DNA from: Chiloscyllium plagiosum | Taxonomy: Eukaryota | Length of the DNA: 64,000 bases | NCBI RefSeq assembly: GCF_004010195.1 | Contig: NC_057718.1 | Location: forward strand, 60,134,137-60,198,136 | Direction: 5' to 3' | In this document: positions 1,527-63,390 of the stretch, one piece after another | How the letters are laid out: every line of letters starts with the position of its first letter | Position numbering within the stretch: the first letter of the stretch is position 1 | The notes under the pieces: model-generated | The model's input: only the letters and a program-made list of their open reading frames with translations | Database searches by the model: none | What the model was told of the DNA's origin: nothing | Program-made: the position numbers and the translations under genes

Positions 1527-2589
1527 GTAAGCTTCATTGCACTGTTCTCCCATTATCACCATTGTTAACATATTCTTAATATTATTATAACCTTATCCGT
1601 TCGTTTTAACTTTTCATACTATAACTAACTTCTAACATTCATTTTGAGAGAAACAAGTTTTGTCAGGAAAGACGGGGAGGTTAATGATTCAGTTAGCACT
1701 CCCATCTTTCCCATCTTCAACTTCCTCACCCCTGCCCCATCCCTCCCCTCTCCCATACCTCCCGCTCCCCTTCCCCCACACCTGCTGGAGAATTGACCTT
1801 GGAGACAGCTTGAAACAGCACAGGTTGGGATTGGCCACTGACTGGTTAGTCACACCCATGTTGCAGAAAGCCATTGAAAGCTAAGCGGAAGTCTTACCCT
1901 GTGAGCTGACAACAAGTGGGGGGAAAAAACAGTAAGGAAAGTTACAATTTGGATGAAAAAAAGAGGGGCTGGAGTTGTAAATTCAAAACCTGCAGTGCTG
2001 TGTGAGGAATCGATGTGGAGAATTTGAGCAGTGAGGTGAGGAGAGGAGACACCCTGTGAGTGCCCGCTTGGTAGGGTCCATGAGGATATCGCTTGAAGCA
2101 ACAAGCAGATAACTATGACTGGAGCAGTAAAGGTCAGACTGTAAGGCTTTTTTCAGTGAGGAGCTATATCATGACTGTCTGACTGGTCAGGTACCACAAG
2201 GAGAGTGCTCAAAAGGAGGAACCAACCCAACTCAGTAATGCTTTCAAAGATCTCAGCTCTTCCCTCATCAAACTGCCATTGAGCTGCTCAGAGAAGCACA
2301 TGTGGTGGTCGAAACTCCTCATCTGAAATTCAAATACTCTGACCCTAGCCATGTGGCTTGCCATATTTTTTCTTTCTATCTTTAACCTATTATCACCCTC
2401 CATTACTGACCTTTTGTTTTGTCTGTCTGTTTTAAATACCAGCTTGGGGGAAAGAGGGACTTTTGGTCTAACAGTCCAGGTAGTTAGTATGAAGCTTTAA
2501 GAGTTTGTATCATTGCCATTCCTAGAATTTCTTGAGTATTTTTCCTCAGGAATAAATAGTTTATCCTGTTTTACATAACACAAATAGGG

Positions 2590-2960
2590 GTCAGAAATCT
2601 TCGTGATAAGCATAGCTCAGGCAGAGTAAATTGGAGTCCGGAGAAGGACTCCTGAGCTTGTTTACTTGACCTTTTCCTTTTTTTCTCTCTTGCTCTTTTT
2701 GTGTTTCTTTTCTTTTTCTTTTCATCTCCCATCCTCTGGTGGCATCGGTGATGTCAGGGATGAGAGCCAGCACAGGTTCCTGGACTCAGTGTGGACTCAC
2801 ATCCCAGTACTCCCAGCCTCAAAGTGAAGCCCAGTGTGATCTAGTTTGGAAGACTGTTATTCTGAACTCATTTCTCTATTTTTCTAAAGTATTGCTGGAT
2901 TTTTTATTTCTTCATTTTTCTATTTTTTCCTAAGAATTTACACTAAAGAATCTGTGCCTT
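2590..2960 (+). mobile_element. Truncated non-coding element resembling those at 46037-46977 and 53768-54419
   Basis: Same layout: pyrimidine tract, GC-rich ggactc/cctgga motifs, T-rich tract, then aagaatctgtgcct (compare atgattctgtacct on the minus strand near 46150-46165). Confidence 0.35.
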
Positions 2961-2984
2961 GTTAAAGAATGCAGCTGCTTTATT

Positions 2985-3400
2985 GTACGATGCCCTCAAA
3001 GGTAATGTGCATAAAGTCTGAAGCACCCTGCACCTGGGGGATGCTAGAAATACTGAAAAAATCCCATTGCTTGGACTGTAGGACTGACCTCAACATGGGG
3101 GAGAGATGAAGAGATGTGATCCTGCACAACTGTATTTGGAACATCAGTGATACACTTGTGGGTTAAGGATTTGGAAATTTTACATAGGTCCTGCAATGGA
3201 TGCTTGGAATGGGCTAGTCATATAAAAATTACATGCTGCTGTCACTGCGATGATAAGTGGGATGGAATAGCCACACACTCCCTCAGAGCATAAGCTCTGT
3301 TCCAGTAGATGGCCTAGTTCTATTATAGTGCCCTGGGACATCTTAGTCTGCACCAGTATTGAGCTTCGGTCGTTTGGAGGAAATGCAATTGACGATGGCA
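2985..3400 (-). pseudogene. PIF/Harbinger DDE transposase remnant (HARBI1-like N-terminal half)
   Basis: ORF 3180-3455 gives KMSQGTIIELGHLLEQSL...IPLIIAVTAACNFYMTSPFQAS. Reading through the stop gives ISKSLTHKCITDV...QAMGFFSISSIPQVQGASDFMHIT, which matches the Harbinger motifs AL.FyA.GsfQ..gd..gISQ and gF..iaG.P.V.GAIDcTHi. Confidence 0.8.
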
Positions 3401-5845
3401 CACTTTTAAATCTTACCTGCATCCTGGGCTGAGCCTTCTGTTCCAGCTTCCTCATGTAGAGACTACTCAGGATCTGCAGGAGGGTTGATGTTGTCCCTGC
3501 ATTTGGTGATGACTTTAAATCAACTCAAGTCATCTGCACAGTCTTTGTACATCTGCGAGTGTTAGTAGCATCTGCTGTTGTTAGAGCAATTCAGGATGGG
3601 TGCAATGAACCAGTGTGGGCAATGTCACAAACAAAATACTCTTCTTAGTAATATGATTCCTGAGCAGTTGTATCAAACATAAATGAAACTTTGATAGAGA
3701 GCATGATACAGTAGGATTGAAGACCTTGTAGAAGGAGGGTGTGAAATGTTTGAAATGGAACTGTGAGATATTAAAACATGTGTACATGTATGCTCACAAA
3801 TCTTCTCACACAAGACATGAGACTATTATAACGATGGTAGGAGTACTATTACTTTGCACCCCATCCCTATATCTGCCATGAAAATCAACATTGCATATAA
3901 GGACAGTATCTACTGCTCTCACTTACACTTCTGTTTGAGAGGAGAATATCTCTGTATTCTTCCATAGCTGTGAAATCTTCACAATGTGTTTGCGAAGTGA
4001 AGAACATGGTTGACACTTTTAAGATCATCCGCAATCACTTCTGCTCCACAAAGCTTAATTGAATTAATTTGCCATGATCTATAGAATTGCTGTTATTGCA
4101 CGTAACCAAGATTTGGAACATATGTTTTTGATCAATGTGTGAGCAAAGGAACTTAATGCCAAATATGTTTCATCATTGATTCAATGGATGCCTGATTGAT
4201 CCAAATACCCCTTAAAGAGTTTCACATCACCCACAAGTACACCCACACTTGCAGACAAAGCAAAACAAATCTGCCTGCTGTGATGTGCTGGTAGGAATCT
4301 TCCATCCATTGTGCACAGCTGACATTTGATGGAAGATGAAACATTCTCCAAGTCACACACCTGATGGTGAATATCAGGCTCTGCCAAAAAAATCAAGATT
4401 CCATCCCACACTCTTCATTGTACCCTTTTGGAGAGCTGTCCCTATCAATCCTATTAACTTCAAGGCTCCCCACATTTGTGTCCAATTATTTTACATAATG
4501 ATCACTGTCCTCTAGATCCCCTACCACTAGCTCAATCCCAGCTATGTCCACTGTCACAGTCACCCCATTAAAGTCAGGGTGGTGCTGGTTTACAAATATA
4601 CCCTCCTGCAGCACCCTGTGTCCTCCCAAGATATAACCCCTCCGTGCCCCAGTACAATGTCTCCAATTCCCACACTTGAGTTTTCCACTTATCTCAATGC
4701 AGCCTGAACTGGCCACTGCTAAGCCTTTTGACTTCTATTGTGCAAACCAGGACCTACCTTACTTTGCAACACTCCCCCTCCCACCACACCCAGACTAACT
4801 TTTGAGGGTAGCCAAGCTGTCTATCTGATGTCTCTACAACTCCCTGACTTACTTATCTCCAATTCTCAGACTAGTTGGACTGACCATGATCCAGTCACCA
4901 AACGGGAGGGACACTGATTCCCCTTACAGTTAATGTTCTCTGTGTATAATTGCAAAGATTTGTTGCATACAATGTTTTGCTACTTGTGCAGTTGTGGCAC
5001 TATCCACTCTGATTGAAGGTTTGATGCTCTTGAATTTGTTTTAGAAGCTTTGAGACTTCTTCCTTGTAGGATTGAGGAGGCTTTTCTAACTTTATAATTC
5101 TTGCTACCTCAAATTCGATGGTCACTTTACTAGCTGTAGAAATGTTAACATATTTGGATACTTTCATATGTGATTGAGGTAATGCAAGGTCAACTTGTTG
5201 CTTCCCAGCGATGATCTTGCCTTCTCTTTAAATGTGACTGCAATTCTGTTGTTGCAGCTCCTTGGCAGGTTCTTGCAATACATTTTACTTTAAAAAAATG
5301 GATTGATTCTTCTCTTAGGAAATGGTTGTATTTTTAGGAACTTGCATGTCTGAGCTGAAACCTTTCTGAATTTTCAGATTCAAGTAAATAGATGATTTGT
5401 ATCCTGGATTTCTTCAGTGTACTTGCATGCACAAATTAGCCAGGAATGGAAACATTGAGCAAGAAGTGAAGATTTGGCTTTGGGTGAAATTTGTATCAAT
5501 AAATAAGCACCATTTTGAAAATTGCTTTCTTCCCTCATTTTAAGGTCAAATTCAGGTTCTGGCTGCAAGGCAAAATGAAGTCTCAGGTCACCTTTTCTAG
5601 GGATCTTGTTCTATGTGGAAACGCAGCCAGTCAGTTGTAAACTTTCACTGGGATTGAAGGCTCTGTCTACCAAAAGCTACAGGCCAGTTAGAGGATGGAA
5701 TCTCTATTCAACAGCAATACCACTCAAAGGCAGATGTTGCTGCTGTGGTGCCAGCCCAAAGCCTCTGACCATTGCTAGGAGTGATTGCATGAGGTGGACT
5801 CACACGATGATCATCATGGAAGAAGGGCAGTGGCAAAAGCAAAGG

Positions 5846-6240
5846 GAGTCATAGAGATGTATAGCACAGAAACAGACCCTTCGGTCCAACTAGTCCATAA
5901 TGCACAGATATCCCAACCTAATCGAGTCCCACTTGCCAGCACCTGGCTCATATCCCTCCAAACCCTTCCTATTCATATACCCATCCAAGTGCCTTTTAAA
6001 TGTTGCAATTGTACCAGCCTCCAAATCTTCCTCTGGTAGCTCATTCCATACATGCACCACCCTCTGCGTGAAAACATCTTTCCTTAGGTTTCTTTTATAT
6101 CTTTCCCCCTCACTCTAAACCTATGCCCTCTAGTTTTGGACTCCCCCACCCCAGGGAAAAGACCTTGTCTATTTATCCTATCCATGTCCTTTATGATTTT
6201 ATAAACTTCTATAAGGTCACCCCTCAGCCTCCGATGTTCC
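5846..6240 (-). mobile_element. HER1/CR1 LINE 3' end
   Basis: gagtcatagag tail; minus ORF RRLRGDLIEVYKIIKDMDRINRQGLFPGVGESKTRGHRFRV is the CR1 ORF2 C-terminus. Confidence 0.9.
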
Positions 6241-7691
6241 CTCATTACTGATGATAGTTGCTTGAACAGGTACCAAGTGCCCTTGGAAGGAAACCATACT
6301 CCCATGAGAGCCTGCAAGATTTCTGTGATGATACTGTGGCTTTAAGAGGTATGCTTGATCTTTTATAGCGAGATTGTGGATAGGTGATGCACAGTCAAAC
6401 AGAAGATAAACAACTCATGAAACCTTGGGTTCTTTTAAGTTGGAACAATAGAAGCAGCCTGAAGGGGTGTGGTCAAGCTCCCACAGAACCAGAATTTTTA
6501 GATTTAGCATTCAGCTGAAGTTTGTTGGGTTGTGAATAGCTGCCACATCTCTCTTTGCTACAGCTGAAAGCTGGAGGTCTCTCTCTCTCTCCCTCTCTCT
6601 CTCTCAGAATTGCCTTTTGATGTTATTTTGTCCTGAATTGGAGAAGATAGAAGACAGAGGGTGATGGTGGAGGGTTGTTTTTCAGACTGGAGGCCTGTGA
6701 CCAGTGGAGTGTCACAAGGATTGGTGCTAGGTCCACTACTTTTCATCATTTATACAAATCATTTGGATGTGAGCATAAGAGATATAGTTAGTAAGTTTGC
6801 TGATGGCACCAAAATTAGAGGTGTAGTGGAGACCAAAGAAGTTTACCTCAGATTACAATGGGACCTTGATCAGATGGGCAAATGAGCTGAGAAGTGGCAG
6901 ATGGAGTTTAATTTAGATAAATGTGAAGTGCTGCATTTTGGGAAAGCAAATCTTAGCAGGACTTACACACTTAATAGTAAGGTCCCAGGGAGTGTTGCTG
7001 AACAAAGGGACCTTGGAGTGCAGGTTCATAGCTCCTTGAAAGTGGAGTCGCAGGTAGATAGGATAGTGAAGAAGGCATTTGGTATGCTTTCCTCTATCGG
7101 TCAGAATATTGAGTACAGGAGTTGGGAAGTCATGTTGCAGCTGTACAGGACATTGGTTAGGCCACTGTTGGAATATTGCGTGCAATTCTGGTCTCCTTCC
7201 TATCAGAAAGATGTTGTGAAACTTAACAGGGTTCAGAAAAGGTTTATAAGGATGTTACCAGGGTTGGAGGATTTGAGCTATAGGGAGAGGTTGAATAAGC
7301 TAGGGCTGTTTTCCCTGGAGCTTCAGATGCTGGGGGGGGGTTACCTTATAGAGATTTATAAAATCATGAGGGACATGGATAGGATCAATAGAAAAAGTCT
7401 TTTCCCTGGGATCAGGGAGTTCAAAACTAGAGGGCATAGGTTTAGGGTGAGAAGGGAAAGATATAAAAGAGACCTAAGGGGCAACTGTTTCACTCAAAGG
7501 GTGGTGCGTGTATGGAAGGAGCTGCCAGAGGATGTGTTGGAGGCTGGTACAATTGTAACATTTAAAAGGCACTGGATGGGTATATGAATAAGAAGGGTTT
7601 GGAGGGATATTGGCCAGATGCTGGCAGGTGGGATTAGATTGGGTTGGGACGTCTGGTTGGCACGGATGAGTTGGACTGGAGGGTGTGTTTG

Positions 7692-8998
7692 CACAGGCTG
7701 TAGATTTGCTCGCTGAGCTGTAGGTTTGATATCCAGACGTTTCATTACCTGGCTAGGTAACATCATCAGTGGCGACCTCCAAGTGAAGCAAAGCTTTTGT
7801 CTCCTGCTTTCTGTTTATATGTTTGTCCTGGATGGGGTTCCTGGGGTTTGTGGTGATGTCATTTCCTGTTCATTTTCTGAGCGGTTGATAGATGGTATCT
7901 AGATCTATGTGTTTGTTTATGGCGTTGTGGTTGGAGTGCCAGGCCTCTCGGAATTCTCTGGCATGTCTTTGCTTAGCCTGTCCCAGGATAGATGTGTTGT
8001 CCAAGTCGAAATGCTGTTTTTTTTCATCCGTGTGTAGGGCTACGAGAGAGAGGGTCGTGTCTTTTTGTGGCTAGCTGGTGTTTGTGTATCCTGGTGGCTA
8101 ACTTCCTTCCTGTTTGTTCTACGTAAGGTGTGTGGCAGTCCTTGCATGGGATTTTGTAGACGACGTTGGTTTTGTCCATGGGTTGTACTGGGTCTTTTAA
8201 GTTTGTTAGTTTTTGTTTGAGAGTGTTGGTGGGTTTGTGTGCTACTAGGATTCCGAGGGGTCTTAGTAGTCTGGCTGTAATTTCTGAGACTTCTTTGATG
8301 TATGGTAAGGTGGTTAGGGTTTCTGGCTGTGTTTGGTCTGCTTGTCGTGGTTTGTTCCTGAGGAATCTGCGGACTGTATTTTTTGAGTATCCATTCTTCT
8401 TGAATACGTTATATAAGTGGCTCTCCTCTGTTTTCTGCAGCTAGTGGACCTGTGCCTCACCACCCACTTCATCTTCAACAACATAATGTACAAACAAACC
8501 AACGGCACACCCATGGGATCTCAGCTATCAGGATTCATAGCAGAAGCGGTAATGCAAAGACTAGCACGAACAGCCCTACCAACCATCAAACCAAAAATCT
8601 GGGTCCGCTACGTAGATGACACCTTTGTCATCACGAAGCGAAACAAGATAGAAGAGACATTTAACATCATCAACAACACCCTCATAGGCATGAAGTTCAC
8701 CAAGGAGGAAGAAACCGACAACAAACTCGCATTCCTGGACGTCACAGTCGAAAGAAAGGACAACAGAGAACTACAAACCTGCGTATACAGAAAACCGACA
8801 AACACTGACCAAATACTTAACTACACCAGCAACCATCCCAACACACACAAAGAAAGCTGTATCAGAACACTATTCCAATGAGCCACATCACACTGCAGCA
8901 CAGACAAACTTCAGAAAACAGAGGAGAACCACCTCAACGAGCAAACCTACACCCTAAACCTCAATCTGAGCTACAAACCTTCACAAACCTTGCAAAAA
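7692..8998. mobile_element. Penelope-like element with internal inversion (GIY-YIG part on -, RT part on +)
   Basis: + 8441-8934: YKQTNGTPMGSQLSG...WVRYVDDTFV...LAFLDVTV...VYRKPTNTD. - 8440-7900: NGYSKN...LPYIKEVSE...NVVYKIPCKDCHTPYVEQTGRKLATRIH (GIY-YIG). TSD agggtgtgtttg 7680-7691 / agggtctgtttg 8999-9010. Confidence 0.93.
7733..7772 (-). ncRNA. Minimal type I hammerhead ribozyme in the Penelope terminal repeat
   Basis: Minus strand: CCA-CTGATGA-T-GTTACCT-agcc-AGGTAAT-GAAA-CG-TC-TGG. Conserved core, 7-bp stem II, 3-bp stem I, palindromic ACGT in place of stem III. Confidence 0.8.
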
Positions 8999-9649
8999 AG
9001 GTCTGTTTGTTTGCTGTACATCTCCAAGACTCTATGACTCTATAACTGTATGTGGGAAAATTTACTTTCAGAATTTGCCTTTTGCCAAGAGTGTGTTTAT
9101 GGGATGTTACTAAATTTGAGTAGTCAATTAGTAATAGTCACTGTATATAATATTCTGATAAGCTTTCCAATAAAGTTGTTATTCTAATTCCTTCTTTCTT
9201 TTGTTGTGTTTTAGCAGTAATGGATGAATAAGGTATGGTTAGCTTTAAATCAGGTAGTTTGACAAATTGAATTGCATCTGGAAAGCAACACCTTACATTT
9301 ACCTTTAAAATAAGGAGAAATTAGGGTCTAGACTACTTTCTGAAATTTTGAAGGGGTTTGGTTTGGTCCACAACACTTCCCCACATGGAGAGTTCCCATC
9401 TGTCGCTTGATTAATTGGAAGAATGCTGAAATGTGGCCTTTAATTGGACACCAATTTCTCATTTTCCAGGTCTCACTTGGCAGTGGTCAGGAAGGCTGGC
9501 CAGAGCTGTTGCCATTAGAGACTATGGAGTAAAAACTTGACACACTCTGCAGTTGCCATTGTCCCAGCTGATTAAATGCCTTTTGCCACCAAACTCATCA
9601 CAGGGAAGGAGATTCCACTTTATTCTCCCACATTCTCACTACACCACAC

Positions 9650-12710: not shown

Positions 12711-14077
12711 AATTTGAACTCATTGAATAAAGGCAAATAGTGTGACTATTCAGAGAATGTAATCTCATATTCTTCCAGTTTTACACTTATCACCAGCTAG
12801 CGTGACAAAGTTAAACTTAAGAATTTCCAGTTGGTCCTTCTGGAATACTTATACTAATTTCTCATCTTTTTTTTCTGGTCAGTGGGGAGCTGATGGTGCA
12901 GATGGCTCACTTGTAACATTTAATTAGTATTCAAAAAGTGCTGAATTAAAATTTTACATGTAACCAGAAGTAAAATAACTCCCGTATTTCCTCTTATTTC
13001 TGCCAACGCCATAAGTTTATTTTGATCTGTTTAAAATTTTAAATGATATTTTTCGTACATATTAGTGTGAATCCAACAGCATATGTCAAATTGTGGGTTG
13101 TTTCATAATGATAACAATGTTATATAATGATTGGAGTGTTTATATTCTGATGTCTACTTTTAATGAGTGTACTTTGAGGAAAGTTTTCCAATGGTAAGTT
13201 GGAGCTTTGTGAAAATGCATGCTTCCCTTTCAGGCCAGAATGTGTATTTTGCTGAGAGAGTCAGGGCCAGTCACTGACTTGTTGCACATGGAAATTATTT
13301 TATGCAAATTGGCTGTCTCTAGTAAACTCATGGTTGTTCCCCATGAGGTTAGTGGAAAACAACAGAAAATTATTGTTCTTCTTTTCTTTAATGCACGTTT
13401 AAGATTCATCAAATAGTGATTTGTTGCTATTTGAAATGTGAACCATTCAGATGTTAAAGTGACATAAAATCTACCCATGTGACACTTCAGTAATACCACA
13501 TTGACAGGCAAAAGACTGATGTGAAGAAATTCAGGCAGGGAATAGTTTTATTACCCACATGCCATCTAAATGCCTATGCTGGGATATTCTGCTAATCTGG
13601 TGAATATGTGACAAGATGGCATTATTTCATAGGGAAACTGAAAATTAACTAGTTACTTTACATGTGATCAAGTTAACCAAAGTGACACATTCACGTGTAT
13701 ATAAAGTTATTTTCTTGCAATGGCGCAACCACAAGCCTCCTCCACCACTCAGGTCGACAGCAGTATTAGAATTCGCCAGTCCCAGATGTAGGTCTCGTCA
13801 GCTTGCAAACTCACACAGGGGACCGGATGGACCATGCCATGTCAGAAATAAGCCTTAAATGCAGATAAAGTCAGATCTTGTCTCCTAACAGAGCCAGGAA
13901 AAAAATACTTGTTGAATGAACATGCCAACCTAGTACCCCAGGAGCTGCTGAGCATTATAAAGCTGCTGCCACTATCCTCTTTCAACATAAGGAACTACAG
14001 AACTTGTTTATAGAGCTAGTGTGGTAGAGAAAAAATAAATACTTCCAGGTCTAATTAGAACATTCCTTCATTAGGTA

Positions 14078-14196
14078 GCTGATGAAGGAGTAGTGTTCCG
14101 AAAGCTAGTGCTTCCAAATAAACCTGTTGGACTGTAACCTGCTGTTTTGTGACTTTTAACTTTATCCACCCCAGTCCAACACTGCCTCTTCCACAT
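14078..14196 (+). mobile_element. Short Penelope-type element, family A, with hammerhead-like core
   Basis: ctgatgaaggagtagtgttccgaaagctagtgctt followed by aataaacctgttggactgtaacctg...ccccagtccaacac; homologous to 18048-18203. Confidence 0.7.
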
Positions 14197-15214
14197 TCAG
14201 TGTTCATAGCCATGGAAAACATTTCTGTTAGTCCAATATTGTCGCAGATTGCCATATTTTTGAGATTAGGAAATTTTATGTTCAGGTTCTGCCTTGAGGC
14301 CACTGAGCCCCATGAGATATATTACTGGCTGCAGTTTGACTAGTTCCTTGACAGGTTGGTCCTTAACTTTATTTAGTTTAACTCCTTCCACCATTTTAAG
14401 GCAATTTGAGGTTTAGACTTACCTTTCCTAGTGTGAGACTGAATTCTTGATTGTGGATTGTGTATATGTTTTCTATTATTTACTGGTCCCTATATCAGAG
14501 AGTTGCTTGTGGCATACCTTTAATCTTAAGTGCTATGCCTCCTGAACCATATAGTTACATTGTTGTCAGCTGTAGACTAATAGCTTAACAATGGCTCATT
14601 ATCTGATAATATAATGATACACACAGGGTCAAACTTTAAATTTGTGAGTTGACCATTGACATAGCAATCAGTTTGCCATATTGTAAGGTCAGGATTACCT
14701 ATTTCCCAAAGCAACGTGTTAGGTTTTTTTTTCTATTATTGATAATTGCATTTCATTAATTTTTTTTGTGAATTGCTGTTTGATTTCCTCCTTTCCAGAA
14801 ACTGTATTCCACTTCTACGTACTTTATGGAAGTGATTTCCTGTGTGATAGTTAAAGCAAATACTTTTAAAAGCTGGGAAATGTCTATGCCTGTGAGGTGT
14901 CTGTACTCCACAGTGCTGACAAGAATTGCACTGTTTTCTTATAAGCAACATTTTTGATTTTATGCCTTAAAAGCCAAGTAAACAGTCTTGATCTCCGGTG
15001 CTAACTTTATCCCCCTGGGATTCTTCCAGACTTCTGCTTCACTCACCAGCTGAATAGCTTTTTTTCTGGAGTTAGCCCTTCTTTGGGCTCTAATATATCT
15101 GACAAAGGGCCATCTGCAATTCACTCAGCAATTCTGTCTCTAACGAAATCTGACTTCAAGTCACCTTGGTCGTTTGGCCCCAAAAATCTGTAGATGTCCT
15201 AAACAAAATCAAAA

Positions 15215-15590
15215 ATGGATTTATAAGATTCTGAGATATCTTGACAGGGTAGACATGGTGAAGGTATTTTCTCTGATGGGAGAATCTAGAATTGGGGGTT
15301 AAATTTTAGAAATCTGGAGTCATCCTTTTAAACAGAGATGTACAACAGTTTCTTTCACAATGAACTGAAAGTTTTTGGAACTCTGTTCCCAAAAAGTGGA
15401 AATACAGTCTTTGAATATGGCAGATGTAGATAGATTTTTGGGAAGCATGGGCATGAAAGATTATCAGGGGTAGGCACAGATGTGGATTTGAGACTGTAGT
15501 GAGATTAGCCATGATCTTATTTAATAGCAAAAGAAACTCAAGGAGCCGAGTGGTCTGCATCTGCTCCTTATTCACACGTTTGTATATGTG
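15215..15590 (+). mobile_element. CR1 3' fragment
   Basis: tataagattctgag...ttgacagggtagac...gggagaatctagaattgggg...agccatgatcttatt. Confidence 0.7.
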
Positions 15591-15889
15591 TGTCTCTTCT
15601 AAAAGCTAATGTCTTTTATTAGACATTGCAGTTCAAGAATTGATTAGTTCTGAGAGCAAAATAATTGCCAAAGGCTCTCAGTATTTCAAAGTATCTGTTG
15701 CTTCTTTTAGCCCTTCAGAAACAATTACATCATTAGTGTACAAAAGTGTATTAAGTTATTAAACCTTCAATTCAGTATTTATATTGGAAGTTATTCTGCA
15801 TCTCAGGAATTATTTTATCAAGATGTTCAATAGTTTGTTCTATTTGGCCCATCTCTGAAATGAACTCTTCCTAATTTTTATGATGTTAC

Positions 15890-16487
15890 TGTTATGGACC
15901 AGACCAAACCTTTTCAAAATTTATCGACTCAAATTCTTCTTATTCTGAAGGCAAGTATAAGGCATTGTGTTCCAGTTGCAATTAGATTAGTCAAACTACC
16001 AGGCTTGAAGCAAGATAGACTTTGTTCTTATACTATATTAAAAATACAAACAAAAGAAAGAAGAATTGGAATAACTTAACTCTACCAGAAAACTTAACAT
16101 AATAATAGATAATTTAACTACTAAACAGCAATTGTTCTGATATAGTAACATCCCATAAACACATCTTTAGTAAAGGCAAATTCAGTAAAATAGATTGTCT
16201 CATGTGAAATTCTCGCAGCAGGAAGAGAGCCATAGCTTTTAGCTGTAACTGGAGGAGGGATAACATGCAGCCTCAAGACCTGAGCAATTACTGAAAGCTA
16301 AAACTAAAATCCTGATTCGATGAGAGTTTGACCCCATCCATTCATGCTGCTCCTATTGTTCTAACTTAAAAAACAAACAAAGTTAGCTGGGCTCAGAGCA
16401 GACATCTTGGCTCCATGTTTACAACAAACATCTGCTTTCAAAACAAAATGACAGAACAAAACCTTCTTAAAGGCAGATCTCATAATA
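15890..16487. mobile_element. Solo LTR (598 bp) with 5-bp TSD
   Basis: Inverted termini TGTTATG...CATAATA; exact GTTAC at 15885-15889 and 16488-16492; same family as 6324-9375 in the opposite orientation. Confidence 0.8.
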
Positions 16488-17970
16488 GTTACTCTTTTAA
16501 AAATGATATTATATTCTGTCCTTGTTTAAAATACTTTTACTCTGCAATATAAATATTGTTCTATTGTCCTTTATTGCAGTATTGGAGGATTTTCCCACAA
16601 GTTGCAGCTAAAGTGGAAGGTTTGAACCTTTCTAAGGTTTAATGGCAAATTCGTGCCTTCCTTGTAGTATCTTGTAACTGCAATTGGTGACTTTGCATAT
16701 TGATTCCTGTTTTTATAAGGCTTTACTCATTATTTAAATAAGTGAATCCTGCCTTTATCAAGAAGGTAGGACCTCCCAATCTTTTTACCTTTTCATTTTC
16801 CATTGGATCCTGGTGTTGTACTGTCCTTGACCACACCTGACTTCAGTGTCCTGCACTGGACAAAGTTTTGCTCACCACTTTGTGGCTGCTGACCTCTCAA
16901 GTGACCTCCAGCATTGACTGCTTAGTTTGTCTTGCACAGCCTTCAATTAGATGTCACACATTGATCACTAGTAGGGTCTGGACCAAGAAATGAGCCCTAG
17001 GAATTTGGCAAAATCCAGCTCACTATGTCAGTGAAGGTAAGGGGATTAACATCAGAAATATACAACATGATGATGATAAATTAATTATGCCAACATCTGG
17101 TGAGTAAGTAAGGTTTTTGGAAGAGAGCAAACATCATATAGAGGCAATAAATATCAAGCTATAGATTAGGTGGTTCTTGCCTGAAACAGAATTATGCACC
17201 ATACTTTTGATCGATTAAAGAGTCCTAAACTCAGAATGCATCGCAATAGAAGGTAGACAGCAGAAAAGGGAAAATCAAGTTGCAGCAATTGAAGAGGTTA
17301 GCAAGACAAAACCAAAGTTTTGAACATTCACCAGGATGGCAGGAACATTACGGGAGAGGAATCTGCAGCAGTAAAGAGCTCAAAAACAGACCCAGTGTCC
17401 AATCACCGATGAGCAAGACCATTAGCTAAAAGGAATGAGGCAGATACAGTAGCAAATATGACAACATTGCCAGAGCTCAGACAAACATGGACTGCAATCT
17501 AGTCCTCCTGGAAACACTCCAAGCTATCACAAGGCCTCAGCAGGTCTAGGAATGAGAAAACTGGTAGAAGAGACCAGAAAGACTAGGTCACTATATTACT
17601 TATGCACCAACAAGGCTGGTATTCTTGAGAATGCATGTGCTATTGTTTGGTGCATATTTAGTGACCAAGTCAAGAAGATGGTGTTTACCTACAGTAATAG
17701 TGCCAAAGCCAAAACGCTCTATCAAAATATGCACACACCTAATTCATGAAAGAAAGCATTGGAATGTGAGTTCTATCCAACGATCTCAGTGGATGAAAGC
17801 CTGGCAAACCAAACTGTAGCACTCTTTACTAACCAGTATATTCTGGTAATTACCCTTGGGGGAACAATTCAGATTACTGACTATATTTATACACTCTTTG
17901 GATATGATTGTATTAATAGATTATCCTTTGAACTTGTGTTTTCTCTGGAGAATTTTCAGAAAATGATTTC

Positions 17971-18470
17971 CAACTCATTAGAAGACATTGATGGTGTATT
18001 ATTCCACATGGACAACATACCAGATCTACAAATATAACATTATCAAAATTTAGAGATGCCGGTGTTGGACTGGGGTGTACAAAGTTAAAAATCACACAAC
18101 ACCAGGTTAGCGTCCACTATCACCTGATGAAGGAGCGTCGCTCCGAAAGCTAGTGTGCTTTCAATTAAATCTGTTGGAATATAACCTGGTGTTGTGTGAT
18201 TTTTAACATTATCAAAGCAACAACTCATTAGAAGACATTGATGGTGTATTATTCCACATGGACAACATACCAGATCTACAAATATAACATTATCAAAATT
18301 TAGAGATGCCGGTGTTGGACTGGGGTGTACAAAGTTAAAAATCACACAACACCAGGTTAGCGTCCACTATCACTGATGAAAGCTAGTGTGCTCCGAAAGC
18401 TAGTGTGCTTTCAATTAAATCTGTTGGACTATAACCTGGTGTTGTGTGATTTTTAACATTATCAAAGCAA
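17971..18470 (+). repeat. 250-bp tandem duplication (17971-18220 / 18221-18470)
   Basis: Two near-identical units starting caactcattagaagac; they differ mainly in the ctgatga-gaaa segment. Confidence 0.95.
18048..18203. mobile_element. Fold-back family A element with hammerhead-like core (second copy at 18298-18453)
   Basis: 13-bp TSD taacattatcaaa (18035-18047 / 18204-18216); 26-bp perfect IR 18084-18109 / 18182-18207; CTGATGA-A-GGAGC-gtc-GCTCC-GAAA at 18124-18148. Confidence 0.8.
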
Positions 18471-20419
18471 CAGAACAGTCATTAGAGTCATATAGTCTGC
18501 AAAATCCATGATTAATTTTCTTATTCAATTTTCAAGCCATTAGAATCACAGTTCATTCTCAAAATATAAAGTTTAAGAATTGTTCCATCACCCAGGAATG
18601 TTATAGAATTTCAAAGATTTGGTGAACCAAACAGGCAAGTTTCTTCAAACTTTGACAGAGCTCAATAACCCTATGAAACAACTTTTAAGACAGGGTCAAC
18701 ATTGGTGCTGGAGCTTGCACTATCAAGACACTGTTGAAAAGATTAACTAATTCCAAATCTATCCAGAAATCTTAATACAATAGAAGCTACATTTACAACC
18801 TGTAGTCATGACAGATATGTCATGCATAAGACTGTGGGTGATAGTATTCCAAGTGCAGAAAGATCACAGCTGTAGGTTAGTTTACTATACCTCTAGGTCA
18901 CTAACAGACAGAACAATGCGATGTTGTGATAGAGAAAGAAGTGTTTGCAGGAACTTTGGTATGTGAAAACCTTTCAGGTTTTGTATTGGGATTACCATTC
19001 AAAATTAATGCAGACTGGAAACCATTTACCACACTTCTGAACATTAAAGAAATTGCTAAAATGCCAACCAGATTTCAATGGTTCAGATTGAGAGTCATGA
19101 ATTCAGCTGCCAAATATCTACAATTAAAGTACCAAACAAAAGTACTAAATACTCTCAAGCATATCTTCAACTGGAGCTGAACAGAAGGACTGAGATTTCA
19201 TCAAGGAGTTTGAAGCCTCCAAATCTTCAATCATTCAAAACTTAGCAATGTCTGAAAGAAAGCTGTGAGTTATAAGATGAGCCCAAGAATATGATGAAAA
19301 ATGTTTTCAATCCAGAAATATTGTCTGGAGCAAAAGCAAGGATATGTATCCATCAATCTGATATGATGCCAACATTTTGAGGCTCCTCACTGCCATTAAT
19401 AATTTAATTGCCTTTAACAAGAGATTAGTTATTTTGACAGCATTTGGCTTGGTGCTCTTCAAATTTGGAGATTACAATGAATTATGTGAGGATACAGCAA
19501 TCAGTCTGGTGATTAGGGAGCACCTGCTATAGAAGAAGTGATTACTAACTACGTTCCTAAAATAGCCAGATCAAAAATAATTGCTTTTACCTTTTTTTGG
19601 TTTCTATTAAGGCCATCAGCATTTCTGGCAATGTATTTATTTGTGGTCAAAGGATAACCTTCCTTCTGGTTATTAATTAATGTTCAAGATGGATTGAAGT
19701 TAGCAGCAGATATAGTTTTCTGAAGCTTCAAAAGAATTTATTGAATAGTTGGGATCCTGGGTATTATATTGTCAAACAATGAACTATAATTTATAAATGC
19801 GCAATTTTAAAATATAGCATCTGACTAGGACTTCATTCATATTACAAGTTTATCTTGCTGTCCTCAAGTAAATGAAGAAGTGAAGAAAGGGATGTAAACA
19901 ATGAAACCTTATTGAAGAAGAATGAAGATCACAATATTTGTCTCTTGAGATATTGATCTTCATTATTAGAGAGCAGGTTATCACCTTCAGAATTACCGAT
20001 AGTTGGGCGATTGAGAACACAAAAGAACAAAATAAAGAGGAAAGAGACGACAAGATTCGAATGTCAATAATAGGCACAGCACATATGAGTTACCAGAGCT
20101 TGATGAGACTGTTTGGACTGGTTAGACTGTTTGAATAAGAGATCAATAGAAAGAAGGTGCAATTATTGAGATAAAAAACAGTGATGAATATGTTGAGACA
20201 GAACATGGTTTAACAAGGAAAATTCATAATGCACGAATATGATTAAAGAGAAGGAGCAGATAAAACTTGAACATAATCCTCCTTAGAAGAAAGATTTATA
20301 CGAGCTCTACAGCCACCCAGAAGAAGAAACCTCATGCCAGTAGACAAGGGAGTACCGAACATCCTCAAAGTCAAAATGAGATCAGAACTAGACCAGGACT
20401 AAACGATTTTCAGCAGCAT

Positions 20420-23369: not shown

Positions 23370-24900
23370 GATAGGATGGTAGGGTGCCACCATGGATAGA
23401 GAAAATCCAACATGTAAAGCCATACAGAGTAGTAGAACTTGTTACTATTATAACACAAATGTTTTCTAAGTAAGGCAAGTAAATAATTATACCAGGAAGA
23501 TACTAGGAGGAATGGAAACACTGGTGCCAGAGAGATTTTCTTTCCCGAATAGACCAAATAGAACACAGAGCTGCATATAATAAAGAAAACAATGCAAAAG
23601 ATGTAGAGTAGCTTCTAAATGAGATAGTAAACCAGAAGCTGATCAAATAAATATACTTTTATATATACAACTGACAGGATAGATGATGATATCAGCATTG
23701 ATAACATATCAGTACTGAAAACACGGGACAATTATTTTAATCTGAGAACAAATAACCTTCTTAAAAGAAAAAAAAGAACAGCATTCAGGACAATCCATAA
23801 ATAATTTCATTGATGATCTCTTCAGATTACTGGAGAAATGTGGCTGTAGTGATTTAAGATCTGAATTTGTAAAAGACTGATTTGTTTCAATTGCTGATGA
23901 GTCTTTCTCAGATTTATAATGGTCTAATGAAAACTTTAGTACGGAGAGTAAAAAAAACAGACTATGAGTACAGCAAAAGTCTAGACGCAGAACAATCCAA
24001 AGATCAATCAGAAGGGGAGAAGATCAATCTTGGTGTAGGAGATCAGCTGAATCCATTCAGTTTTTAAGTTGCAAAATTGCAAAAGACCCATGTGACAAAT
24101 CAATACAGTGAGTAGGACAGACATCAAGTAGTAAAATCCACCATCAGTGCTGTAAAGCTTCGTAGGAACAGGCAGTATCTAGATATTAAAAGTGAATGTT
24201 TTATTTGTAACACAACAGGTCACTTTCAGAAAATGTATCCAGGTAGAGCACAATCGTAGAAAACAAGCAGTCTAATAGCTACCCACTAGGTAAAAACAAT
24301 GACTGCAGATGCTGGAAACCAGATTCTGGATTAGTGGTGCTGGAAGAGCACAGCGGTTCAGGCAGTATCCAAGGAGCAGCGAAATTGACGTTTCGGGCAA
24401 TGCTCCTCGAATGCTGCCTGAACTGCTGTGCTCTTCCAGCACCACTAATCCAGAACCTAATAGCTACCCACACAAAGAGATTGATGAGACAAAATAATCT
24501 ACAATAGCAGAAAAACCTAATATATTTATAAAGAAAATAAGTCATCCAGAATGAGCTTTTTGGCAAAAGGATATTTGTGTCAATGGAGATCTCATGAATT
24601 TCAAGTTAAACTGGGAACAGATATCGCTTTCTGATCAGGTAGTGAATCATGTTTGAAGGAACAATATTTACAAACAACCAAAGTGCAACTACCTGATCCA
24701 GGAAGTATAAGACTTAAAATTAAAGATAAGCTAAAAGCAATTTTGCGTCATAAGGGACAGGCACTTCACAAAAAAATTCTAACACTTGGATATAAATGTG
24801 TGTATATCCCATTGAGCTAACTAACATTTTTTTATTGATGTAACACAAGACAACTTGGTGAATAAGCAGTAAGAACAGATTCAGAATTTTAGATGCTAAA
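23370..24900 (+). mobile_element. Decayed Ty3/Gypsy gag-protease remnant
   Basis: KPEADQINILLY; FIDDLFRLLEKCGCSDLRSEFVKD; zinc knuckle-like ECFICNTTGHFQKMY near 24195-24240; decayed NFKLxTG protease-like motif near 24597. Confidence 0.6.
24287..24456. mobile_element. Fold-back family B element (Penelope-type; only the 3' half of the hammerhead retained)
   Basis: 15-bp TSD ctaatagctacccac (24272-24286 / 24457-24471); ~45-bp IR arms 24324-24368 / 24411-24455; minus-strand gcccgaaacgtc. Confidence 0.85.
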
Positions 24901-34004: not shown

Positions 34005-35116
34005 ATAAGGTTGTGGCTGATCAGATTACTCTACATTCCTTATCTTTTATTTTTTTTTCATTTGCATTTCAAGAATCTATTAACCTATGTTTTAAAAATA
34101 TCCAAACACTCTGCATTGCCTTTTGAAGTAAGTTCCAAAGTCTCATGACCCATTGTGACAAAAATAAATCCCCTTATCTCAGTGATCCCCTAATTTTAAG
34201 CAGTGACATCTCATTCTATGATGTCCATCCTGTTAGTTTTCCTGATAACATGTCCTGCCTGTCTTCTAATCTTCTGTAATTCTTTCATTAGGACCAGACA
34301 ATTAGCTGAACCATTACACAAAATGATAAATCAATAATAAAAATTGTTTTACTTGCCCAATACATATTTTCTATAGTTTTTGAGCTAAGTAACTCCTAAA
34401 ATAATGCCAATGACATTTGAATGTTGACTCAAACATTTCTGGATGGTTGGTGTTTCTGAAGAATAGATTTTTAGACTGGAGAGTTTACCACACATATACC
34501 ATTACAAGAGTATTAGAAAATTCAGCCTCTCTGCTAAACACCGAAATAGTCACAAATGGTGAACAAACCCACTGCCAAGCTACAGTAAAATTTGAACATA
34601 ATTCCACCTCCTAGATTATCAGACATTTGGATCCAAAGATAATAATATTTAGATTCACAGACTATATTGAAATTTGACAGATTTGATTGCCCACCTATTG
34701 CAGGATCTGTCAAATTTTCCTCACACTAAGTTCAAGAAAATATTTAGCAATTTCTAATTTAACCACTTTGCCACATTATTATGGACCAGGGCGCTGAAGG
34801 TGAAAATTTTCACTCAGATATTCCATTACATTAACAATGAACTTCACCCTGTAACTTCAAATGAAGCTATTAGGATGTGTGTGTATTGGTGGTACATGCT
34901 GCCAAAATAAGAATGCAGACTGCCAGAAGACCCCAGTCAATTTTCCAACAACTTCAGAAATCATTTAAATGGGCATATCTCCTAACAGCATCTTCCTAGC
35001 AAATGTTCCTCAAAGCTCAACAGCTAAGTCATGCAAAATGCTCAGCCTCAGGAATATGAAAACTGCCTGCATCTATTTCACTGTTAGAGCACTGTGGAAG
35101 TTGGATTATAAATACT

Positions 35117-35215
35117 GATTTATCCTGATGAAGGGCTTTTGCCCGAAACGTCGATTTTCCTGCTCCTCGGATGCTGCCTGATCTGCTGTGCTTTTCCAGC
35201 ACCACTCTAGTCTTG
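35117..35215 (+). mobile_element. Family B short element with an intact minimal hammerhead (35122-35155)
   Basis: ATC-CTGATGA-A-GGGC-tttt-GCCC-GAAA-CG-TC-GAT; 9-bp TSD ataaatact 35108-35116 / 35216-35224. Confidence 0.85.
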
Positions 35216-35624
35216 ATAAATACTAAAGTCCATTTTAAGCCTTCTGAAGAACATTATTTTCTAGCTATCACCTGCCACACATAGATTTCTATCACATTGT
35301 TAAGTTGATTTCTAAATATATACTGTTAATTATATTTTTCAAAATAGTAAGTACCTCTGAACTCATATGGATTGAAATCATGCTGGATAATACTCATTAT
35401 GAACATTGAACAAAACAAAATAGGGTAAAGATCCTAAGCCAGCTTTTAGTGCAGGAATTTAATGTATCTTAAATAGTAGCACAGTATTAAATATATTAGA
35501 AAATCAGAATGTACTTTGGCTGTAGTAGTCCATGGTGTTCCACAACATTCTTATCATTTATTGCCAATGCATGAGATTGCCTACATTTTGTTTACAGAGT
35601 TTGGAACTTATTAGATTTCATTCT

Positions 35625-35875
35625 TTCAATGGTTCGCAAAGCTGCCTCAGAAAGCCAGGGCCCTAGATCCAATTCCATGCTTGGGTGACTGTCTGTGGAG
35701 TTTGCATGTTTTCCCTGTCTCTGTGTGGGTTCTCTCTACATGCTTCAGTTTCCTCCCACAGTCCAAAGGTGTGTAGGTTAAGGTGCAGTGGCCATGGGAA
35801 ATACAGGGTTGTGGGGGTGGGGTGCTGGGCAGAGGGTTAGTGTGAACAGTGCTTCTACACTGTAGGGATTCTCTG
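35625..35875 (+). mobile_element. HE1 SINE, diverged
   Basis: gctgcctcag...ttgggtgactgtctgtggagtttgcatg...tttcctcccacagtccaaag...cacactgtagggattct. Confidence 0.8.
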
Positions 35876-36529
35876 ATTTACAAATCCACACTGCCAGCTT
35901 TGTGCTCCCACCTCCACCTTGACCTTCCAAACCTCCAGTCACCCTCATAATTCAGCATCATACAATTACGCTCCTACAATTTGCAGCTTTACCTCTCTGC
36001 CATTCAACTCTTTATTAGATTGATTTATTTCAGCAACTTTGTTTCATGAACTCCATCACAGATGCCTTTGATCAACTTGAAAACCAACTCCTGACTGCCT
36101 GACCTGTTTTTCTTGCCTTTCCTTTTTGTGAGGCATTGTGGTCATGGGATACAGAGTTTGAATCTTGGAGCTGGCTGAGCGAGGATGTAAGTGAAAAATA
36201 TTCTATATGTTCTGAGACTGTGCCCCTGCATTTTAGATTTCCTGATCAACAAAAGCAATCTCTGAGTACTAATGTCAGGTCCCTCCACAATCTCAATAAT
36301 AGCATCTCTCTTTCTTCTAGACACCAGAGAATATAAGCCCAATTTACTCAGCTTCTCTTCACAGGAAAACCCACTAATGCTAGGAGCCAGTTTCATGAAA
36401 TTTTGCTTGACTGCTTCCAACGTAAGTATATCTTTTCTTCAAAATGACACACAGATTTCAGGCGCAATGTCAGCAAAACCCCAAACAATTTGTGCAAAAT
36501 TTCTTAATTTTTAACTTAAATTTCAAACA

Positions 36530-37160
36530 GTACTTCTTGGAATTTAGAAGAATGAGTGGGAATCTTATCAAAATATATAAAATTATGAAGTGAATAGATA
36601 GGATAGAAGCAAGGAGGTTGTTTTCACTGGCGGGTGAAACTAGAACTAGAGGGCATAGCTTCAAAATAAGGGGAAGCCAATTTAGGACTGAGTTGAGGAG
36701 GAACTTCTTCACCCAAAGGGTTGTGAATCTGTGCAATTCCCTGCCCAATGAAACAGTTGAGGCTACCTCATTGAATGTTTTTAAGTCAAGCGTATGGTGC
36801 TGGAAAAGCACAGCAGGGCAGGGAGCATCTGAGGAGCAGGAGAATCGATGTTTCGAGCATAAGCCCTTCATCAGGAAAATGTCAATATTCCTGCTCCTCC
36901 GATGCTGCCTGAGCTTCTGTGTTTTTCCAGCACCACACTCTCAACTCTGATCTCCAGCATCTGCAGTCCTCACTTTCTGAAAATGATTTTAACGCAAAGA
37001 TAGATAAAGTTTTGAATGGTAACGGAATTAAGGGCTATCGTGTGTGGGTGTGTAAGTAGACTTGAGTCCACAAAACGATCAGCCATGATCTTATCGAATG
37101 GTGGAGCAGGCTCGATGGGCCAGATGGCCTACTCCTGCTTCTAGTTCTTATGTTCCTATG
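36530..37160 (+). mobile_element. CR1 3' end interrupted by a family B element
   Basis: ORF FSLAGETRTRGHSFKIRGSQFRTELRRNFFTQRVVNLCNSLP; tail ttcttatgttcctatg. Confidence 0.9.
36786..36980. mobile_element. Fold-back family B element, hammerhead on - (36844-36877)
   Basis: IR arms tggtgctggaaaagcacag... / ...ctgtgtttttccagcacca; minus-strand CTGATGA-A-GGGC-ttat-GCTC-GAAA-CA-TC-GAT; degenerate TSD aatgtttttaag / aatgattttaac. Confidence 0.8.
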
Positions 37161-40799: not shown

Positions 40800-42600
40800 A
40801 GAGTCATAGAGTCATAGAGTCATAGAGATGTACAGCATGGAAACAGACCCTTTGGTCCAACCTGTCCATGCCGACCAGATATCCCAACCCAATCTAGTTT
40901 CACCTGCCAGCACAGGCCTATATCCCTCCAAACCCTTCCTATTCATATACCCATTCAAATGCCTCTTAATCATTGCAATTGTACCAGCCTCCACCACATC
41001 CTCTGGCAGCTCATTCCATACACATACCACCCTCTGCGTTAAAAAGTTGTCCCTTAGGTCTCTTTTATATCTTTCCCCTCTCATCCTAAACCTATGCCCT
41101 CTAGTTCTGGACTCCCTGACCCCAGGGAAAAGACTTTGCCTATTTATCCTATCCATGCCCCTCATAATTTTGTAAACCTCTATAAGATCACCCCTCAGCC
41201 TCCGACGCTCCAAGGAAAACAGCCCCAGCCTGTTCAGCCTCTCCCTGTAGCTCAGATCCTCCAACCCTGGCAACATCCTTGTAAATCTTTTCTGAACCCT
41301 TTCAAGTTTCACAACATCTTTCCGATACGAAGGAGACCAGAATNNNNNNNNNNNNNNNNNNNNNNNNNNNNNNNNNNNNNNNNNNNNNNNNNNNNNNNNN
41401 NNNNNNNNNNNNNNNNNNNNNNNNNNNNNNNNNNNNNNNNNNNNNNNNNNNNNNNNNNNNNNNNNNNNNNNNNNNNNNNNNNNNNNNNNNNNNNNNNNNN
41501 NNNNNNNNNNNNNNNNNNNNNNNNNNNNNNNNNNNNNNNNNNNNNNNNNNNNNNNNNNNNNNNNNNNNNNNNNNNNNNNNNNNNNNNNNNNNNNNNNNNN
41601 NNNNNNNNNNNNNNNNNNNNNNNNNNNNNNNNNNNNNNNNNNNNNNNNNNNNNNNNNNNNNNNNNNNNNNNNNNNNNNNNNNNNNNNNNNNNNNNNNNNN
41701 NNNNNNNNNNNNNNNNNNNNNNNNNNNNNNNNNNNNNNNNNNNNNNNNNNNNNNNNNNNNNNNNNNNNNNNNNNNNNNNNNNNNNNNNNNNNNNNNNNNN
41801 NNNNNNNNNNNNNNNNNNNNNNNNNNNNNNNNNNNNNNNNNNNNNNNNNNNNNNNNNNNNNNNNNNNNNNNNNNNNNNNNNNNNNNNNNNNNNNNNNNNN
41901 NNNNNNNNNNNNNNNNNNNNNNNNNNNNNNNNNNNNNNNNNNNNNNNNNNNNNNNNNNNNNNNNNNNNNNNNNNNNNNNNNNNNNNNNNNNNNNNNNNNN
42001 NNNNNNNNNNNNNNNNNNNNNNNNNNNNNNNNNNNNNNNNNNNNNNNNNNNNNNNNNNNNNNNNNNNNNNNNNNNNNNTTATCCACTTTTAACCGTTTCA
42101 AGACATCCAGCACTTTCTCCTCTGTATATCTGGACGTTTTGCAAGATGTCACCATCTATTTCCCTACAGTCTATATCTTCCATATCCTTTTCCACAGTAA
42201 ATACTGATGCAAAATATTCATTTAGTATCTTCCCCATTTTCTGTGGCTCCACACAAAGGCCGCCTTGCTGATCTTTGAGGGGCCCTATTCTCTCCCTAGT
42301 TACCCTTTTGTCCTTAATGTATTTGTAAGAACTCTTTGAATTCTCCTTAATTCTATTTGCCAAAGCTATCTCATGTCCCCGTTTTGCCCTCCTGATTTCC
42401 CTCTTAAGTATACTTCCACTTTCGTTATACTCTTCTAAGGATTCACTTGATCTATCCTGTCTATACCTGACATATGCTTCCTTCTTTTTATTTACTAAAC
42501 CCTCAATTTCTTTAGTCATCCAGCATTCCCTATACCTACCAGCCTTCCCTTTCACCCTGACAGGAATATACTTTCTCTGGATTCTCGTTATCTCATTTCC
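40800..42600 (-). mobile_element. Young HER1/CR1 LINE spanning the assembly gap
   Basis: (gagtcata)3 tail; FWSPSYRKDVVKLERVQKRFTRMLPG below the gap and YIPVRVKGKAGR...IGPLKDQQG...LNEYFASVFT above it. Confidence 0.93.
41344..42078. other. Assembly gap (735 N)
   Basis: Run of N. Confidence 1.
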
Positions 42601-56881: not shown

Positions 56882-57439
56882 CTCTCACTGAGTAATCCAG
56901 GGCGTTGTGACTTGACTCCCTCACTCCATTGTATGAGGATCAGATGGACTTGTGGTGCATGTCTGATACGAGATCAGAAAGTTGCAAATGGACAACTGGA
57001 TTCATAAATCAGAGGTCTATCTATCAAAGTCAGCGTCTTCTGCTACAGTTGTAGTGTTCCTACATTTGGGCTAGAAAGTCTGGATTCAAGTTTATCTACT
57101 CCAGAGCTGTATTTGAACACATTGATTAAAAACTTTTATAACAATGGTGACTGAATGGTAAGGAGTTAGATTGCTAATCCTTTGTATTCTCCACACACAG
57201 GTGTGATCTTGTCACTGTAATTGCATTGCAGCATGTTTTAAGAGATCTTGTAGCACAATTGGTCACATTCCTCCCTCTGGGCCAGAATATCCGGGTTTGC
57301 GTCCCATACCAGGATGTATTGAACTTGGAAAGTGCATCAATGACACAGCCAGATAGATTGATTACCAAACCGCAAAACCTTCGAATACACCTGAGAGTGA
57401 GGGAGTCAAGTCACAACGCCCTGGATTACTCAGTGAGAG
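56882..57439. repeat. Perfect 45-bp inverted repeat with 468-bp spacer
   Basis: 56882-56926 ctctcactgagtaatccagggcgttgtgacttgactccctcactc is the exact reverse complement of 57395-57439. Confidence 0.97.
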
Positions 57440-62248: not shown

Positions 62249-62452
62249 AAGAGAGTGGTGCTGGAAAAGCACAGCAAGTCGGGCAGCAGCCGAAGAGCAG
62301 GAAAATCGACATTTTGGGCAAAAGCCCTTCATCAAGGATTATTTTTGCCCGAAACTTCTTGCTCCTCGGATGCTGCCTGACCTGCTAAGCTTTTCCAGCA
62401 CCACACTCTTGATTCTAATCTCTAGCATCTGCAGTTCTCAATTTTGCCTAGT
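62249..62452. mobile_element. Fold-back family B element with a decayed hammerhead
   Basis: 15-bp TSD tgatttctatgcttc 62234-62248 / 62453-62467; IR arms gtggtgctggaaaagc / gcttttccagcaccac; minus ttgatgaagggcttttgcccaaaatgtcgat and plus ttttgcccgaaac. Confidence 0.85.
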
Positions 62453-63264: not shown

Positions 63265-63390
63265 AGAAATGAAGGGTCATATTCGACAGAAAATATAAAC
63301 TTAGTTTCTTTTTCCACAGATGTGGCAGATCTACTGAGTTTTTCCATCACTTCGCTTTTATTTTAGATTTACAGCATCTGCAGTTTTTTT
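63265..63390 (+). mobile_element. Old relative of family B elements
   Basis: atgaagggtcat...cacagatgtggcagatctactgagtttttccatcac...cagcatctgcagtt parallels the family B 3' half. Confidence 0.5.

Follow-up and report, generated by a model that had tools for sequence, protein, structure and literature searches.

A 99-bp hammerhead-bearing insertion in Chiloscyllium plagiosum is probably a truncated end of a Penelope-like retroelement

The 99-bp insertion at 35117-35215 of the Chiloscyllium plagiosum DNA analysed here (64,000 nucleotides in all, referred to as the window) is probably a 5'-truncated end module, or pseudo-LTR stub, of an endonuclease-bearing Penelope-like retroelement (PLE), and since this copy stops at the short end of its family (family A) we favour reading it as a truncated Penelope end that stands alone. 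On this reading a GIY-YIG endonuclease would have nicked an AT-rich target with a 9-nt stagger, and reverse transcriptase (RT) would have used the inner of its two start sites on uncut RNA, which we propose as the reason that the focal copy has no tail. Reverse transcription would have halted just past the 5' edge of the ribozyme, and the 5' junction was likely closed by a short copy of the target made by fold-back. The source RNA may have come from a Penelope element with coding capacity or from a short master without it, the latter being possible because a coding parent was not found.

An exact, AT-rich 9-bp direct repeat, ATAAATACT, lies at 35108-35116 and 35216-35224 on the plus strand and encloses the insert. 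The probability of a flanking repeat of at least 9 bp arising by chance was 0.0019 (20,000 random positions, 16x16 nt edge tolerance), in agreement with the target-site duplication described in the first-pass annotation. As contigs of the family align up to 35216, the first base of the right duplication could be element-derived. At the other border, likeness to the family begins at 35123 and the preceding 6 nt (35117-35122) are a junction filler that is not family sequence. Positions 35118-35123 match, as a perfect reverse complement, the opening 6 nt of the left duplication, and a fold-back match of this kind was found by chance at 59 of 63,210 positions, or at 16 of 3,357 AT-matched positions, which suggests that the filler was made at the 5' junction by synthesis on a folded-back target strand. 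The remainder of the insert downstream of the hammerhead (35156-35215, plus strand) is the 3' part of the family end module and finishes at a short, tail-less end 11 nt past CCAGCACCA, where other copies continue into a tail. The element has no B-box match and only short chance open reading frames, and the window has no tRNA gene, as expected from the original description of an insertion with neither a Pol III box nor an ORF; the features of a tRNA-derived SINE (internal Pol III boxes, a tRNA-like head) are absent from the element.

No empty site was present among the contigs of runs X13 and X17, and none of the best 15 of 41 joints skips the element, so that no pre-insertion allele confirms the duplication. 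The scope of this search was set by coverage: right-hand contigs reach 26 (X13) and 24 (X17) letters into the element, below the 31-letter rule, the left junction is bridged, and contigs of run X5 leave both junctions uncovered. With regard to age, left-flank contigs of two further organisms, B and C, enter the element by 33 and 32 letters, and right-flank contigs by 26 and 24, respectively. Since these contigs bridge from flank into element, the insertion is likely older than the split of the organisms, which differ at the locus by 12 of 466 (B) and 11 of 458 (C) letters, or ~2.5%.

The hammerhead motif is of the minimal type I kind and occupies 35122-35155 on the plus strand. Stem I is formed by ATC (35122-35124) and GAT (35153-35155), and between these lie the core CTGATGA (35125-35131), an extra A (35132), stem II GGGC/GCCC (35133-35136/35141-35144), GAAA (35145-35148), and then CG, T and C17 at 35152. 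G35133-C35144 forms the G10.1-C11.1 pair, ACGT at 35148-35151 is a self-complementary palindrome, and the cut site is predicted between 35152 and 35153. The Fig S7 descriptor of PMC4209133 (stem I of 3-7 bp, cuganga plus an optional base, stem II of 3-7 bp, a loop of 3-10, gaaannuh) matched three places in the window (35125 plus, 18124 plus and 7769 minus) and had no match in 120 Markov simulations of it; the motif stands as first written, ACGU palindrome included. An Rfam comparison, proposed in the first-pass annotation as a check, gave no such agreement: there were no matches in the whole window at the gathering threshold, and of nine weak matches within 34900-37100 none was a hammerhead and none overlapped the element.

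Folding predictions bear on whether this motif could act. A35122, which gives the third stem-I pair, is a filler base, and as the loose-end consensus of the family has T at this position the third pair of the focal copy was supplied by the filler. Stem I is at most 3 bp, and the 6-bp helix I and loop-loop contact of a canonical hammerhead are absent. In the focal monomer the predicted pairing probability was ~1.0 for stem II and 0.02 for stem I, with a lowest-energy fold in which the palindrome region is paired to part of the core, and the 99-mer folded no better than its shuffles (z -1.01). In a two-strand fold of the 40-nt core the hammerhead dimer reached -14.9 kcal/mol against -24.6 kcal/mol for the best structure, a weak result because the energy models ignore the core. 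The monomer is thus predicted not to adopt the hammerhead fold, and the focal copy alone is predicted not to cleave.

A profile built from the copies recovered eight arms at five loci in the window, identical to the eight input arms. Related copies had earlier been placed at 24287, 36786, 62249 and 63265, and all four exist, but the first three are inverted pairs and the last is a distant relative. All three close sister loci are head-to-head pairs of one short and one tailed arm. The pair at 36786-36978 sits within a CR1-like LINE remnant and has a short minus arm with a decayed core and a tailed plus arm, with no exact flanking duplication found, while that at 62249-62452 (minus arm short, plus arm tailed) is flanked by a 15-bp duplication at 62234-62248/62453-62467. 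The third, at 24287-24456 (minus arm tailed, plus arm short), represents a variant subfamily in which CUGAUGA is missing from both arms, and has a 15-bp duplication at 24272-24286/24457-24471. The decayed relative at 63265-63390 (plus strand) shares both the end module and the tail (nhmmer E 7.5e-6 against the best family-A arm). Short ends extend 7 nt past CCAGCACCA in the minus arm at 62249-62452 and 12 nt in the plus arm at 24287-24456, compared with the 11 nt of the focal copy, and tailed ends extend 48-49 nt, so that the tail, which the focal copy lacks, corresponds to the 36-42 nt between short and tailed ends where measured. An inverted 5'-truncated copy beside the end repeat is found in the family and is absent at the focal copy. 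This layout of inverted arm plus tail at the sister loci upholds the earlier proposal of insertion by Penelope machinery.

In focal-copy coordinates, six of the seven family-A arms start at 35118-35146 and one at 35161; all begin within ~45 nt around the hammerhead and none extends upstream. Six of the seven also retain sequence upstream of the predicted cut, which indicates that uncut RNA was copied, as in the available text of PMC11167929, and differing starts among the sister-locus arms are expected if every insertion was truncated afresh. As a separate observation, the three inverted pairs are predicted to form long hairpins (-88 to -109 kcal/mol) and gave weak matches to microRNA-precursor models; from these predictions they are possible sources of double-stranded RNA.

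We assessed the family genome-wide by aligning three DNA runs to 34920-35430 at 85% likeness, covering the whole run of organism A and ~85% of the runs of organisms B and C. This matched 73,907 (A), 73,736 (B) and 73,409 (C) contigs, almost all on 35118-35225 and with the flanks at single-contig depth. These totals indicate a very large family and are not a copy number, and at ~74,000 contigs per run in three organisms they are in keeping with the high genome-wide abundance that had been anticipated from the window. Among the best 15 of 41 joints, 12 were opposite-strand. Loose ends at 35123 were present in 1,322-1,519 contigs per run, with poor upstream agreement (0.32-0.43).

The variation test took in 40 of 68 variant rows, with reads filtered at 85% likeness to the focal copy, both of which weaken it. 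Within these rows, variable non-CpG places numbered 0 of 21 in the core and stems, compared with 3 of the 5 free places, N7 and loop 2 (p 0.004, Fisher test), and 11 of 49 further 3' (p 0.008), and this is the excess conservation of the core across copies against which the ribozyme call was originally to be judged. CpG places, G12 included, show 6-22% deamination. From this pattern the hammerhead appears to have been constrained in the source lineage, with neutral decay in the genomic copies.

In one poly(A) single-cell RNA run, of which 2% was read, 2,620 of 12,955,460 reads matched family A, on both strands, and 99% of these continue into unlike sequence, which fits passive read-through from many loci. 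No reads fell on the focal flanks and there was no pile-up of read ends in this sample. Poly(A) single-cell libraries are unsuited to testing cleavage.

The search for a coding parent of family A extended beyond the window. Its DNA pattern, strict or looser, was found at no locus in viral contigs, metagenome contigs or prokaryote genomes, and protein searches with the chance frames of the element, intended to detect read-through into a parent, gave no link to a coding parent. Three protein matches were rejected, one being a spurious 54-aa frame (P0038) and two being unrelated repetitive proteins. The P0038 frame reads family A backwards (25/27 identical) and then family B forwards (14/18), joined at the hammerhead heads, and judging from this order its source was possibly an inverted pair from two different PLE families. 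Within the window, a family-A end module joined to an RT and GIY-YIG frame was not found; in carpet-shark DNA this module may follow a Neptune-type endonuclease frame.

A coding Penelope-like remnant of another family is located at 7693-8995, in a CR1-like 3' end, and was rejected as the family-A parent because it has no DNA likeness to family A. Its inverted RT piece (8417-8881, plus strand) matched Pfam RVT_1 (E 3.2e-7), and the best matches of 8420-8878 were from carpet sharks, among them a Chiloscyllium punctatum protein at 90% identity (37 hits from 217 candidates). A GIY-YIG-like piece runs from 8440 to 8024 on the minus strand, and downstream of it is the minimal hammerhead matched by the descriptor at 7769 (minus strand). 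The occurrence in the window of a coding PLE whose endonuclease is followed by a hammerhead counts in favour of the PLE reading of the insertion. An ATG within the hammerhead core of this remnant opens a frame, and a frame-opening ATG inside the hammerhead core has likewise been reported for Anolis Poseidon. A second hammerhead family, with an AGCU palindrome and the same layout as family A, occurs at 14076-14190, 18048-18203 and 18298-18453, and at 17971-18486 one inverted pair with a 13-bp target duplication has been duplicated in tandem (250 bp, 95.5% identical). Elsewhere in the window, perfect 45-bp inverted repeats at 56882-56926 and 57395-57439, ~470 bp apart, resemble a small DNA transposon, and an assembly gap at ~41300-42080 falls as an N run inside a CR1-like LINE (735 N in the window).

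The main rival to a truncated PLE, although we regard it as unlikely, is a self-standing non-autonomous unit of ~100-140 nt, made up of the hammerhead and the end module, transcribed from short master loci and mobilised in trans by a Penelope enzyme, in line with the inference of the first-pass annotation. It keeps this place because the hammerhead marks or contains the start of all seven arms in the window, a clustering not obviously predicted by random truncation of a 3-kb element, and the families at 14076-18466 and 63265 likewise begin at their own hammerheads. The lack of a coding parent in the viral, metagenome and prokaryote DNA searched, together with the low upstream agreement of the many loose ends at 35123, counts for such a unit and against truncation of a longer element, although contigs with long loose ends are biased to copies that join unique DNA. 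In the available text of PMC3846280 PLE ends are able to act in trans, and in that of PMC8557442 non-autonomous PLE derivatives are known. Weighing on the other side, arm starts vary among copies (35118-35161) with no common 5' end, family likeness extends a few letters upstream of the focal start, and a promoter box is absent. We retain the 5'-truncated PLE end as the preferred reading.

A more doubtful proposal is that the ribozyme itself sets the insertion starts, with synthesis of the first arm halting at the folded hammerhead's 5' edge and the 3' cleavage product serving as the template for the inverted second arm. In all 12 opposite-strand joints among the best 15 of 41, the second-arm starts fall at 35155-35178, a short distance downstream of the predicted cut, but this joint table is a biased top list and the second arms in the window start upstream of the cut, at 35137, 35139 and 35146. 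Were the proposal true, the shark population would be a fossil record of hammerhead cleavage in the Penelope transposition cycle.

The retrozyme-like label of the first-pass annotation fared less well. As a solo monomer of a non-LTR retrozyme, the focal copy would derive from tandem units that self-cleave as dimers, circularise and re-insert, and a head-to-tail joint from 35205 to 35123 does occur in the three DNA runs (3, 15 and 20 contigs); furthermore, in the available text of a 2026 preprint (bioRxiv 10.64898/2026.07.22.740005) one cartilaginous fish has retrozymes with many solo monomers. These joints are few, however, partial tandems are also normally formed by PLEs (PMC8557442, available text), no head-to-tail joint or RNA back-joint was seen among the 2,620 RNA reads of the poly(A) library, and inverted joints predominate among the best 15 of 41. 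The window contains no tandem, the focal copy is single with a minimal core, where the definition given in the accessible part of PMC7229834 requires canonical type I hammerheads, and the sister-locus arm starts differ, which together make this origin very improbable.

Slightly less credible still is retention of the focal copy as a functional cis-acting ribozyme that cuts a host transcript. In its favour are an intact core, a stem I extended to three pairs by the filler, and the occurrence of the insertion in all three organisms. Against it, we estimate from the deamination rates above that chance alone would leave all three CpG pairs intact in ~4 in 10 family copies, stem I is predicted to be open, the plus strand of the window has no second full family-A core, and the focal flanks had no RNA reads in the 2% of one run. 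A chance look-alike within an unrelated SINE or MITE-like repeat, which could draw on the Rfam result and on the ordinary fold of the 99-mer, is the least credible of all given the exact match to a published descriptor with none in 120 simulations, variation that spares the core, one-sided tails that are foreign to MITEs, and a core, extra base and palindrome that two unrelated families of the window also have.

The focal copy itself matters little, being a stub, inserted long ago, of a retroelement whose class is known. The family could be of more use, as its tens of thousands of distinct copies would allow arm starts to be counted against the cut site at base resolution, and also reveal the positions conserved by the source lineage, which bears on why PLEs carry hammerheads, a question raised in the available text of PMC8557442. 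In addition, Rfam and a descriptor with a 3-bp stem I under-count hammerhead motifs of this kind.

Several known systems resemble family A. Minimal hammerheads (min-HHR) were described in the pseudo-LTRs of metazoan PLEs by Cervera and de la Pena in 2014 (PMC4209133), where, in the text available, cleavage was absent for a lone min-HHR and weak for dimers. Family A has the same CUGAnGA core, extra base before G10.1, G10.1-C11.1 pair and palindromic 15.1-16.1, and also has no helix III; thousands of dispersed single motifs were likewise interpreted there as truncated PLEs, although the copy number of family A looks far above the 2,000-9,000 motifs per genome given in that text. The closest row in Fig S3 of PMC4209133, whose rows include no cartilaginous fish, is that of Acropora digitifera Neptune, whose stem likewise opens with GGGC and which also has CGUC, a weak hint in the motif that family A may be tied to Neptune. 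Unlike the published descriptor, the family majority seems to have two stem-I pairs and a U-U, so that many copies would escape it.

The units of endonuclease-positive PLEs (Penelope/Poseidon, Neptune) provide the second comparison. In the accessible text of PMC8557442 and PMC3846280 a truncated copy lies alongside in inverted orientation and one end may bear a tail of 30-40 bp, a 9-bp duplication is given in that of PMC3846280, and for Anolis Poseidon the available part of PMC11167929 describes AT-rich targets and a tail that spans the interval from one RT start site to the other. Family A shares with them the 5' truncation, the inverted truncated copy, the 30-40 bp tail and the AT-rich targets, and its duplications of 9, 15 and 15 bp correspond to their 8-15 bp; unlike them, as far as these sources extend, its units are merely 100-200 bp. 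The same part of PMC11167929 reports that the Poseidon hammerhead cuts only with protein, that uncut RNA is the main substrate and that in vitro cleavage is not needed for insertion.

Animal non-LTR retrozymes, as set out in the available portions of PMC7229834 and the 2026 preprint (bioRxiv 10.64898/2026.07.22.740005), are also non-coding, with a type I hammerhead, kinship to PLE ends and solo monomers, and the preprint derives them from PLE ends. They are characterised by tandem repeats, originally canonical hammerheads and circular RNA, whereas the focal copy is single, its core is minimal and the pairs of family A are mostly inverted; these differences disfavour a retrozyme reading of the focal copy. 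In part of a published report PLEs are expanded in the whale shark. We found no description of a shark hammerhead family in the literature, although Repbase, Dfam or the supplements of the 2026 preprint may contain one. Judged by its sequence features, the focal copy is an ordinary member of an already described kind, the min-HHR-bearing PLE end.
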